Source of the DNA: a virus
Lineage: Duplodnaviria > Heunggongvirae > Uroviricota > Caudoviricetes
Virus record (IMG/VR): IMGVR_UViG_2724679293_000004
DNA: 18,400 nt
Reading direction: 5' to 3' (one strand)
Part shown: in pieces, positions 1-3,000 of the stretch
Layout: every line of letters starts with the position of its first letter
How positions within the stretch are numbered: the stretch's first letter is position 1
Made by a program: the position numbers

Positions 1-3000
1 CCGGTATATCGACTTCGATGTACGGGTTAATTTGTCTGGCGACAGTGGCAAGGTCTTTATTCAAGAGTGCTTTGCATTCTGCTTTGGTATACGTTTTACC
101 GGGAATGATGTCTTTTCCGGTGTGTCCGTGACATACAGTCCATACGCCAACGATATCTTCGTATGGTATGTAGCTGACACCTTCCAGGCCATCGTCACCA
201 CTCGGACCAGTGATGAGCACAGACGCTATGGCAACAGCCCCACCACCAATAGCAGCAGCAACAGCCTTGCGTAATGATGGCGACATTATTCACCTCTCGC
301 AGCCTTACGCTTATCTTCTTTAATCTTGAAATAAAGGTTTGTCAGATACGTCAGCAAGCCAAACACCAGGCTACCCAATACGCCTATTGCCACCCACTGG
401 GATGGGGAGACTTTGTCCAGCAACTGCAGTAGCCAGTATCCCGTCCCCACCGCTGACGTGGTGTATGACACACCTGTTGTTATTTTTTCCATCTGGTACA
501 TACCCCGTCTCCCGTTATCCGGAAGCTGACAACAATAAAAAGCCACCAGTTAATTCCTGATGGCCCTGATGCATAAACGTCATAATACCTGACTGTTATG
601 ATTGACAATAATGATAATGTTTATATAGAAAGGTTCCCGATGTGTGTTACATATCATTTCTCCACGGGGAATATCCCCACGCCAGCGCAGACTCTTTTAC
701 CCGTTCTCTTCTGCGCTGGCTCTTTTTTATTATGCTGCTGCATTTACCTCTGGCACCATGCTTTCTATCTCAACACAATACGTGGTACTTCTTGTAACCA
801 ATATCATAACGATTAATCGACATAGAATTTCTCCCGTGTACAGGAACAGAGTTAAAAAGCCGGAACCGGAATCAAATCACAGGATGACCATCTGCCAGTG
901 GCAGGTCATAAAAAAAAGGCCGCGCCATGCGCAGCCAGAACTCACAAGGAAAATGATAGAAGGAAATAACATTAGTGATGTACGCATGGCGCCTCCCGCT
1001 AAGTTCTGCAATGATCAAACAGAACTCGCTACGTGCCCTTAAAACTCGATCATTTAGCCCCTCCAAGGAGGATNNNNNNNTAGTGATGTACGCATGGCGC
1101 CTCCCGCTAAGTTCTGCAATGATCAAACAGAACTCGCTACGTGCCCTTAAAACTCGATCATTTAGCCCCTCCAAGGAGGATTCACCATGCGGTTGATTTT
1201 TTAATAAACAGTAAACAAAAAAGTCAAGAATTATTCATTCTGTTCTTTCATCATCGGCCACAGCAATACCACAATGCCGCAGACCAGAGCGCCATCAGTC
1301 AGTACCAACATTATCCTGCTGGTGAAATCCATCATCACCATCACTAAAAGCAGGATCACAACAGCAAGCAGACACAGTTTATAAAACAATGTTCAGAAAA
1401 CGCATTCAGCATGCCTAAGGTTCTATTCCTACGAATAGCCAACTTGCAACTTAAAATATTATTTATGCAGCCAATTAAATTCTGGTCCTTACAATATCAA
1501 CCTGAAGATTCTTATCTTGTGCTGATTGATAAATGACAAACCTTTTACTACCTGCATTGAAAGAAGTAGACAAAACCAGACAATTATCATAACGAGCAAG
1601 AACATAATACCAACCATCATTATAATTAATCATTTCATATTCTTTCTTAAACTGTGGTTTGTAATATCCTGTCAGAAATGAAAAAAGCCAAAAATATGCC
1701 ACAAAAGCAATCATCACAATCTCAAAAAAATGTTTTTTTATAAATGGCTTATCATAGAAGCATGATACCGATAAAAATCGCCCATAAGATCTTATCGAAA
1801 TTGTAACCGCCAGCGCAATCGCTGCTGACAGTAGCAAAAGAGGTACCTGAATCTTCTGTCTCAATATAGAAAACTCAATAATTGCCGGCACAAACAATAA
1901 TTCCACAGCAAAATAAAGGCGAAATACATTTAGCTCTTGCATAGAATGTTTTCTTTTCACTGCGAAAAAGAATACAACACCAATACCCCAACCGATAAGA
2001 AATATAGCAATGACGATAACTGCAAAAAATAAACTTCTGGCAACATCATCAACACCTGCACCTACAATCCACCATGGGAAGCCGTAGTAAAAAGAAGTAC
2101 CCCATCCATAGAAATAAGCACTCCCCCATCCAAGGCATCCCATGTAGGCAATAAAAAGTGAAGAACTCCTGAGCAGCGCACCATCCTTCATAACCACCCC
2201 AATACAAGATGATAACATTGGCTTACAACTCATAACAAAAGCAATTCAATGCCGTCAAGAGGTTACAGGCTAAAAAAACTCTATTACATAGCAGCCAGCA
2301 TGTTTACCGTACAAGTACAACTCAGGGCATAAAAAAAACCCACTCGGCAGCGGGTTTATACATTTTTTACAACATACCAAATTTGCATGAAGTATATGGC
2401 TTTTAATCCAGTTTTGCAATATTTTGCTGTAAAAATGCTGCCTTTTGTTTTGAACGTGTTCTCGTCACAAGCAATAAAGCATCACTATCAAGCTGTAGAA
2501 AAATGTGCTTCATTGCAACCCAGCGTTCAGTAAATGTCTCGGACCAGTTTTTTGTTGTCACTCCCACCAATGATGCCAGTGTCTGGTATTCATAGGCCTC
2601 ACGCCCTGCAAGTTCGCTCTTCACATCCTGTGCAGCCAGCCAGATTAACGTCTTCAGGCGATCCAGTGTCTTACCTGCAATTTTTCTGTTACTTAACAAA
2701 TCTTTAAACTCGCTCCATGCCCATTGCGTTATGGTGACCTGATGCCCCCATCGAACGCTTTCGCTGTAACACCAAAGCAACCATGCTTTCTGATGTTCAT
2801 CGAGAGACAAAACCGCGCGGCGCCATGAAGAGGTTGAGAATTCAACCGGGCTGACCAAAGCAATGGATGAACCTTTTGCGTACGACTGCTTACCGGAAGT
2901 CGGCGTATTATCCAGCGTAATCATCTTGCCAGTTACCACATCCAGAATGCGCGGCTTCTTTCGTTTGTATGTACCAGTATCAAATTGTGCATGCTCCTGC

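Follow-up and report, generated by a model that had tools for sequence, protein, structure and literature searches.

A TfpB-family membrane protein gene carried as a moron in the late region of Escherichia coli lambdoid prophages

What does an AT-rich gene for a membrane protein do in the late region of a lambdoid prophage, in the slot downstream of the antitermination gene Q that carries the Shiga toxin genes in toxin-encoding phages? The question is raised by a minus-strand open reading frame (ORF) at 1475-2233 of the virus record IMGVR_UViG_2724679293_000004, an 18,400-nucleotide stretch of DNA referred to here as the window, and it concerns a gene that is common in E. coli. The protein as an entity is already known, as it falls in a Pfam family (PF27470) and identical proteins are catalogued, and our analysis reveals no new mechanism. 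Its identity, family, architecture and moron status can be stated with high confidence. As an explanation of the whole, the best we can offer is a translated lambdoid-prophage moron encoding a TfpB-family envelope protein of lysogenic conversion, and we regard that explanation as evenly balanced between right and wrong.

Coding evidence, family and carriers

The longest minus-strand ORF at this site (1475..2233, 252 aa) contains in-frame ATGs at 2233, 2218 and 2191, which account for the range of 238 to 252 aa given in a sequence-only reading of this DNA that preceded our analysis. Because full-length homologues are nearly all 236-238 aa, with an alignment that begins at M15 (ATG 2191), and because a purine-rich Shine-Dalgarno-like block precedes this common start, also in diverged alleles, ATG 2191 appears to be the most likely start and 238 aa the most likely product length. 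M6 (ATG 2218) is the start annotated in RefSeq and in the phage 434 record. The coding sequence and its starts are as follows:

1475..2191, minus strand: TfpB-family coding sequence (PF27470, PHROG 1521), predicted inner-membrane protein of 238 aa, from the favoured start ATG 2191
ATG 2218, minus strand: alternative start giving 247 aa (RefSeq and phage 434 record)
ATG 2233, minus strand: alternative start giving 252 aa

The ratio of nonsynonymous to synonymous substitution (dN/dS) for this gene is 0.057 against an E. albertii allele and 0.084 against an Escherichia sp. allele, and these low values (0.06-0.08) argue that 1475..2233 is a genuine protein-coding gene under strong purifying selection and not a chance ORF. 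The protein alignment is free of gaps to homologues as low as 25% identity. GC content is 36.1% in the gene (30% at third codon positions) and 45% in both Q and the window as a whole, a difference that bears out the foreign, moron-like composition already suspected from the bare sequence.

The product is 100% identical to CPT_434_68 of phage 434 (UMO75332.1), which its depositors labelled 'putative membrane protein' and to which they gave no function (PMC9119081), and it corresponds to RefSeq WP_001302581.1, labelled 'hypothetical protein'. The precomputed Pfam assignment for an identical protein (P0001), and for every homologue, is PF27470.1, named TfpB, and PHROG 1521, a family of unassigned function, is matched at E=2e-154; the sequence-only reading, which recognised no family here, was in this respect mistaken. 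Our own hmmscan of the protein against Pfam gave no match because the Pfam copy used predates PF27470. Together with that scan, those against NCBIfam and PADLOC returned nothing useful for the protein, and the 52 aligned members, all scanned against Pfam, yielded scattered noise only.

The family is small: among 1.8 billion proteins it has 72 representatives at 50% identity. When species-representative genomes were scanned with a degenerate DNA pattern, it was located in Moraxella, Pasteurellaceae, Neisseriaceae, Salmonella and Escherichia, and a distant subfamily, every member of which is annotated as hypothetical, is found in Klebsiella, Enterobacter, Lonsdalea and Peribacillus; these distant members led us to drop the idea of a family restricted to animal-associated bacteria. 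Within E. coli, the gene occurs at 1226 places in 692 of the 5426 complete genomes, often in two or three copies per genome, and its carriers are mostly Shiga toxin-producing (STEC) and enteropathogenic (EPEC) lineages. Among the loci kept from an IMG/VR scan, every copy is 100% identical. Literature searches on WP_001302581, on PF27470 or on 'tfpB' with Moraxella found no paper, and most matches to 'TfpB' concern chemistry, anaesthesia or an unrelated Acinetobacter PilB-like ATPase. A 3054-bp contig labelled 'MAG: Veillonella sp.' (L039) also carries the E. coli cassette described below and scores against the profile just as the copies in E. coli and phage 434 do; this contig almost certainly represents E. 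coli or phage DNA contaminating a binned genome.

The cassette and its expression

A gene of the DUF3927/TciB type follows the TfpB-family gene in 79 of the 79 viral contigs in which the pair could be assessed, and we therefore treat the two genes as one cassette. Its surroundings in the window, read from Q downstream, are:

2403..3176, minus strand: Q82-type antitermination protein Q (PF06323, E=1.7e-91); the RefSeq form is shorter, 2403..3092
2391..2419, minus strand: candidate late promoter pR' (TTGCAA, 17 nt, TATACT), a pattern match only, overlapping the 3' end of Q
2336..2357, minus strand: intrinsic-terminator-like hairpin and T run, the tR' equivalent, marked as a terminator in phage 434
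2192..2335, minus strand: cassette leader, with a conserved promoter-like block and a Shine-Dalgarno-like GGGGTGG before ATG 2191
TTGACG 2258-2253, 15 nt, TGTTAT 2237-2232, minus strand: the promoter-like block in the leader, conserved with an allele on plasmids of enterotoxigenic E. coli (ETEC)
TTGTTA 2238-2233, 18 nt, TG-TATCAT 2214-2209, minus strand: overlapping promoter candidate, from pattern
2238-2225, minus strand: CII-box pattern TTGTTATGAGTTGT, marked by the phage 434 depositors
1231..1389, minus strand: DUF3927/TciB-like small membrane protein, 52 aa, directly after the TfpB-family gene; its PHROG label mentions colicin resistance

The cassette starts directly 3' of the tR' hairpin, with a break in homology at about 2330-2339. 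At this fixed junction it is present in some related prophages and absent from others: it has been found behind two different Q types, and in prophages of sequence type 131 (ST131), whose Q gene is 88.5% identical, the holin gene comes directly next and the cassette is missing. The slot is thus variable among related prophages, and its proposed equivalence to the moron slot of the Shiga toxin genes is borne out by a 68% identical prophage allele (P0019-type), which occupies the stx position of Shiga toxin (Stx) phages. Given its composition, a variable slot with two Q types and the constant DUF3927 pairing, the gene is an AT-rich accessory moron of E. coli lambdoid prophages. The stxAB morons of Stx phages likewise lie downstream of Q, pR' and tR', and LT-II (type II heat-labile) toxin genes also occur as late-region morons of lambdoid prophages; these morons encode secreted toxins, whereas the window gene encodes a membrane protein with nothing to suggest toxicity. 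In phage 434 the order LpxR, YlcG, Q82-like Q, terminator, TfpB-family gene and TciB is that of the window, with the difference that a SASA/NanS-p esterase gene, missing in the window, stands before the holin gene.

Since the ORF heads the late transcript, ahead of the genes for holin, endolysin and spanins, it might be thought to encode a lysis-timing or other late-function protein, such as a regulator resembling an antiholin that depends on pR' alone for its expression. Homology to a lysis or structural component would have spoken for such a function and against a moron, and the protein has no such match in Pfam or PHROG. The lysis cassette is complete without it, holin, endolysin and spanins being encoded separately, and family members are also found on plasmids and chromosomes that have no lysis genes nearby. 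The cassette is missing, moreover, from prophages that have a related Q and their own holin, and from phage 434B, which still forms plaques after its Q-to-lysis region was swapped for DLP12 DNA (PMC9119081); the swapped region, as annotated in phage 434, includes this gene. A lysis or late function is in our judgment extremely improbable.

Transcription of the cassette may not depend on Q alone. The promoter-like block of the leader is common to the ETEC plasmid allele, which is 59% identical and has no Q upstream, and its conservation in that Q-less setting suggests an autonomous promoter for the cassette. We envisage that Q-antiterminated late transcription would read through the cassette during lytic growth, and that in the lysogen a conserved sigma-70-like promoter of its own probably drives the cassette as well. 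As a separate observation, only some 50-60 nt separate the pR'-like promoter from the tR' hairpin (2336-2419), a spacing from which a short terminated late-leader RNA would be expected. Short terminated late-leader RNAs act as small RNAs (sRNAs) in Stx phages; the Rfam match to STnc240 at 2336-2419 is not significant (E=0.26).

Architecture, relatives and proposed role

Residues of the protein are numbered here from M15. An AlphaFold2 model built on a diverse alignment of 52 sequences reached a predicted local distance difference test score (pLDDT) of 78.1 and a predicted template modelling score (pTM) of 0.71; an earlier model on 21 close homologues (pLDDT 62) was too uncertain for use. Kyte-Doolittle hydropathy and the model agree on five transmembrane (TM) helices, at 3-36, 47-79, 84-111, 116-137 and 155-181, in line with the five or six hydrophobic segments counted by the sequence-only reading. 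The tail of about 55 aa (YYKPQFKKEYEM...), which that reading took for a soluble C-terminal domain, is modelled as a five-strand, all-beta domain at 187-232 that contains no helix. Counts of lysine and arginine, read by the positive-inside rule, favour a cytoplasmic placement of the N-terminus, loop 2 and loop 4 in 52 of 52 sequences, and on the strength of this bias the first loop and the C-terminal beta domain are predicted to be periplasmic and the N-terminus cytoplasmic.

Conservation is strongest in TM1 and the first loop. Residues A15, Y26, Y28, W30, G31, G37, W41, A51 and R52 are invariant across the family (alignments A3 and A4), and the nearly invariant motif (A)Y.YGWG..(x)YYG[FY]PWW...ARSL is predicted to present an aromatic, glycine-rich face at the periplasmic end of TM1, loop 1 and TM2. 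With no histidine or acidic residue conserved across the family alignment, there is no sign of a known catalytic site, and the motif has more the appearance of a binding surface. Remote homology searches returned no PDB, BFVD, defence-system or lysis-protein match beyond the TfpB family, with neither Foldseek of the model against BFVD and PDB (E<=1e-3) nor a sequence-profile search of PDB giving a match.

The same plan is seen in Moraxella, in the setting of type IV pili (T4P). The ORF of the Moraxella pilin-inversion segment is presumably tfpB, the namesake of PF27470. Its M. bovis version is a 261-aa ORF (L033, 491..1276) that lies between two inverted pilin gene segments; it is 27% identical to the window protein over 236 aa by BLASTP (E=5e-23) and gives a profile match at E=1.7e-76. 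Moraxella TfpB and the window protein have in common five helices followed by C-terminal beta structure and the motif AY.YGWG...GYPWW...ARSL, and they differ in setting, the Moraxella gene lying 3' of a type IV pilin gene in an invertible segment beside piv and the window gene having no pilin neighbour. In M. lacunata NCTC10359 the homologue is directly 3' of the expressed pilin gene, adjoins piv and is truncated to 195 aa.

These relatives raise the possibility that the protein is an accessory factor for type IV pilins or pseudopilins, one that would bind their membrane-anchored N-terminal helix, in T4P or in a type II secretion system (T2SS), and modulate assembly. Full-length homology to an ORF flanked by pilin segments and piv is what such a factor would show, and the core subfamily is found in Moraxella, Neisseriaceae and Pasteurellaceae, which are rich in T4P. 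One allele also adjoins eltAB, whose product is exported by the T2SS. The TfpY/TfpX/TfpZ/FimB-like proteins resemble the window protein in having TM helices, an N-terminus in the cytoplasm and a C-terminal domain in the periplasm, and TfpY/FimB-like genes, like Moraxella tfpB, lie 3' of pilin genes; by their published description, however, there are three TM helices in these proteins and the domain is mixed alpha/beta, as against five TM helices and an all-beta domain here, and the window protein falls outside that group by architecture (PMC11841053). Beyond Moraxella, moreover, no pilin gene was found near the gene in the window or at any locus examined, and the M. lacunata copy has lost part of its length. 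To our knowledge, lambdoid coliphages do not use T4P as receptors. We judge a pilin-accessory function improbable.

Diverged alleles of the gene are found in prophage, plasmid and chromosomal settings (identities are to the window protein):

P0019-type lambdoid prophage allele, 68%: order Q, methylase, tRNA-Met, tRNA-Lys, gene, lpxR (opposite strand), pmrD (in one of three loci), nanS-p
Citrobacter rodentium chromosomal allele, 66%: divergent from a split lpxR, at the chromosomal site that holds Salmonella STM1630
ETEC plasmid allele, 59%: about 870 bp from eltAB and divergent from it, near estB, among insertion sequence elements
Yersinia allele, 45%: after a different Q (PF06530)
Neisseriaceae and Pasteurellaceae homologues, 19-30%: isolated chromosomal genes with no common neighbour

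The ETEC allele lies at 4001-4714 in four of the loci retrieved (L052-L055), about 3 kb from the gene for the heat-stable toxin STb, and occurs in more than 1,200 contig-index blocks (908 contigs on record). A conserved gene partner was sought across the family and none was found, DUF3927 accompanying this E. coli allele only.

Published phenotypes come from the Salmonella homologue STM1630 (SL1560), a 717-bp gene beside sseJ whose product is 46% identical over its full length; we identify it with our homologue P0075 through a published deletion primer that encodes NSSMLLAYLGGLGWG, as P0075 does. Like the window gene it is AT-rich and encodes a 238-aa protein with the common motif; unlike the prophage-borne window gene, it is a chromosomal, non-prophage gene between sseJ and steB with its own mapped promoter. 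STM1630 is bound by H-NS and is expressed inside macrophages and in medium inducing Salmonella pathogenicity island 2 (SPI-2); ST313 strains have an inactivated STM1630 promoter; its deletion in strain 4/74 increases replication inside macrophages and causes no growth defect, and signature-tagged mutants have been reported as attenuated in calves and chickens (PMC6785131). Its expression clusters with SPI-2 and PhoP-regulated genes (PMC2639726). One screen found the mutant hypermotile (PMC4219756), and a follow-up with clean deletions tested STM1630, which is not among its featured hypermotile mutants (PMC4534456).

These patterns also bear on superinfection exclusion or abortive infection, by which an inner-membrane protein would block the DNA entry of other phages or kill infected cells. 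A single small prophage-borne gene of foreign composition, encoding an inner-membrane protein, has the look of such a function, as have the isolated orphan genes of Neisseriaceae and Pasteurellaceae and the pairing with a TciB-like gene labelled for colicin resistance. PADLOC, however, recognised no family, and the PHROG matches are only to families of unassigned function, none annotated as exclusion. Salmonella subspecies and C. rodentium keep their homologues at a single chromosomal position, and four Mannheimia species keep theirs at a syntenic one, in contrast to defence genes, which turn over fast; STM1630 is co-regulated with SPI-2 and PhoP genes; and one allele sits on ETEC toxin plasmids. 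We accordingly regard phage exclusion as unlikely, since vertically retained, virulence-co-regulated homologues favour an envelope or host-interaction role over it.

A more specific pointer comes from a second moron of the window, which lies on the other side of Q:

3568..4527, plus strand: lipid A 3'-O-deacylase LpxR moron, AT-rich, beyond Q and ylcG

Adjacency of lpxR to the TfpB-like gene is seen in three different arrangements, and the two have diverged to similar degrees (LpxR about 73%, TfpB-like protein 66-68% identity). The lpxR allele of the window is present in 622 complete E. coli genomes (624 places) and the junction of Q with the TfpB-family gene in 633, and in the genomes that were cross-checked lpxR and the TfpB-like gene are adjacent.

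Three lines of evidence, namely the STM1630 data, the neighbours of the various alleles (lpxR, pmrD, nanS-p, toxins and effectors) and dispensability for phage growth, lead us to favour an envelope or host-interaction role in lysogenic conversion, although only tentatively and with rather less than even confidence. Within such a role, the recurrent lpxR neighbour makes remodelling of lipid A or lipopolysaccharide the leading candidate. As we picture it, the 238-aa TfpB-family protein of the cytoplasmic membrane, encoded with the DUF3927/TciB-like gene in a moron cassette inserted directly after tR', is dispensable for phage growth and lysis, and may bind a membrane-embedded or periplasmic partner and thereby alter the cell-surface physiology of the bacterial host. 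Its action would resemble that apparent for STM1630 under virulence regulation.

A polytopic inner-membrane protein with an orphan-gene distribution and a partner labelled 'colicin resistance' could alternatively provide immunity or resistance to a membrane-acting toxin, such as a pore-forming colicin or an effector of contact-dependent inhibition (CDI) or type VI secretion, possibly together with the TciB-like protein. The taxa that carry the family are rich in CDI systems, which would suit this. The TM1-loop motif is, however, strongly conserved across bacterial families, unlike fast-diverging immunity proteins, none of the loci examined for shared neighbours has an adjacent toxin gene, and DUF3927 is missing beside all other alleles. 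Toxin immunity seems to us very improbable.

Several observations weigh against the envelope and host-interaction role that we favour, or against parts of the argument for it. Within E. coli the lpxR linkage reflects, for the most part, a single clonal prophage module and therefore counts for little as independent evidence, and lpxR is not a neighbour of most homologues. The phenotypes of STM1630 mutants are mild and do not fully agree with one another. Distant members in environmental Enterobacterales and Peribacillus mean that the family extends beyond animal-associated bacteria, and promoter-like sites in the region are, in a consensus scan, no more frequent than chance. Fold searches of PDB and BFVD gave nothing, so that the mechanism is drawn from context alone, and we know of no family member, Moraxella TfpB included, for which a biochemical function has been demonstrated.

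A broader proposal, that TfpB proteins make up a new class of inner-membrane envelope-remodelling proteins working with LpxR or with envelope programmes of the PhoP/SPI-2 type, strikes us as quite unlikely. If it were true, phages, toxin plasmids and pathogenicity islets would be spreading TfpB proteins along with toxins and effectors, tuning the pathogen surface in the animal host, and about 12% of sequenced E. coli would carry, in the gene of phage 434 and STEC, a virulence modulator of lysogenic conversion that has gone unrecognised. Four 'hypothetical' records that had been annotated separately (434 gp68, STM1630, the LT-adjacent ORF of ETEC and Moraxella TfpB) are in any event joined here in a single small family, and the lpxR partnership offers a concrete, testable starting point for work on a conserved, virulence-associated membrane protein.

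The holin side of the window and minor features

The sequence-only reading placed the gene between Q and the holin. In outline this stands, the gene lying between a Q82-type Q and a P21-type holin; it is incomplete in that the DUF3927 gene and an STnc100-like match intervene, and in that a scaffold join interrupts the interval. The features on this side are:

1049..1220, minus strand: STnc100 sRNA match, sub-threshold (35.8 bits against a gathering score of 47, E=2e-5), broken by an N run
286..546, minus strand: P21-type class II holin gene (E=2e-32), ORF of 86 aa from GTG
286..501, minus strand: dual-start form of the holin (MYQMEK...), with 71-aa and 68-aa forms of the S21-pinholin type, marking the next block of the late operon

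A run of seven N (1074-1080) has a copy of the same overlap, about 101 bp long, on either side (975-1073 and 1081-1181). On the gene side of the run, 2400-1081 is 100% identical to phage 434 and 3300-1081 is 99.96% identical; on the holin side (1073-87), identity is 97.9% to an esterase-less prophage type (L063). The run marks a scaffold join of two overlapping contigs, possibly from two prophage copies, and the linkage of the gene to this holin copy is therefore uncertain in this assembly. The corresponding gene order is present without a gap in that same IMG/VR contig (L063) and, with the extra esterase gene, in phage 434 and strain E2865. Of the 55 viral contigs that could be assessed, 34 have the order that lacks the esterase gene and places the holin about 600 bp beyond DUF3927.

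Terminator-like sites lie between the STnc100-like match and the holin gene. A 2026 preprint (PMC13192938) places the prophage sRNA PasD, which it reports as related to STnc100, near Q and lpxR at the corresponding position.

On the far side of lpxR, a truncated fragment of an antitermination protein is found at about 4670-4741 (minus strand; RefSeq annotation mapped from L001 9371-9442), and phage 434 has an N-terminal fragment of lambda Q at the corresponding position. From these fragments, the block of lpxR, ylcG, Q82 and the TfpB-like gene seems to have replaced a lambda-type Q. A further single N occurs at 10317. At 14200-14258 on the plus strand, a lambda cIII thermoregulator element is matched in Rfam (88.5 bits, E=9e-21), and by this match the window extends into the early-left region of the prophage.

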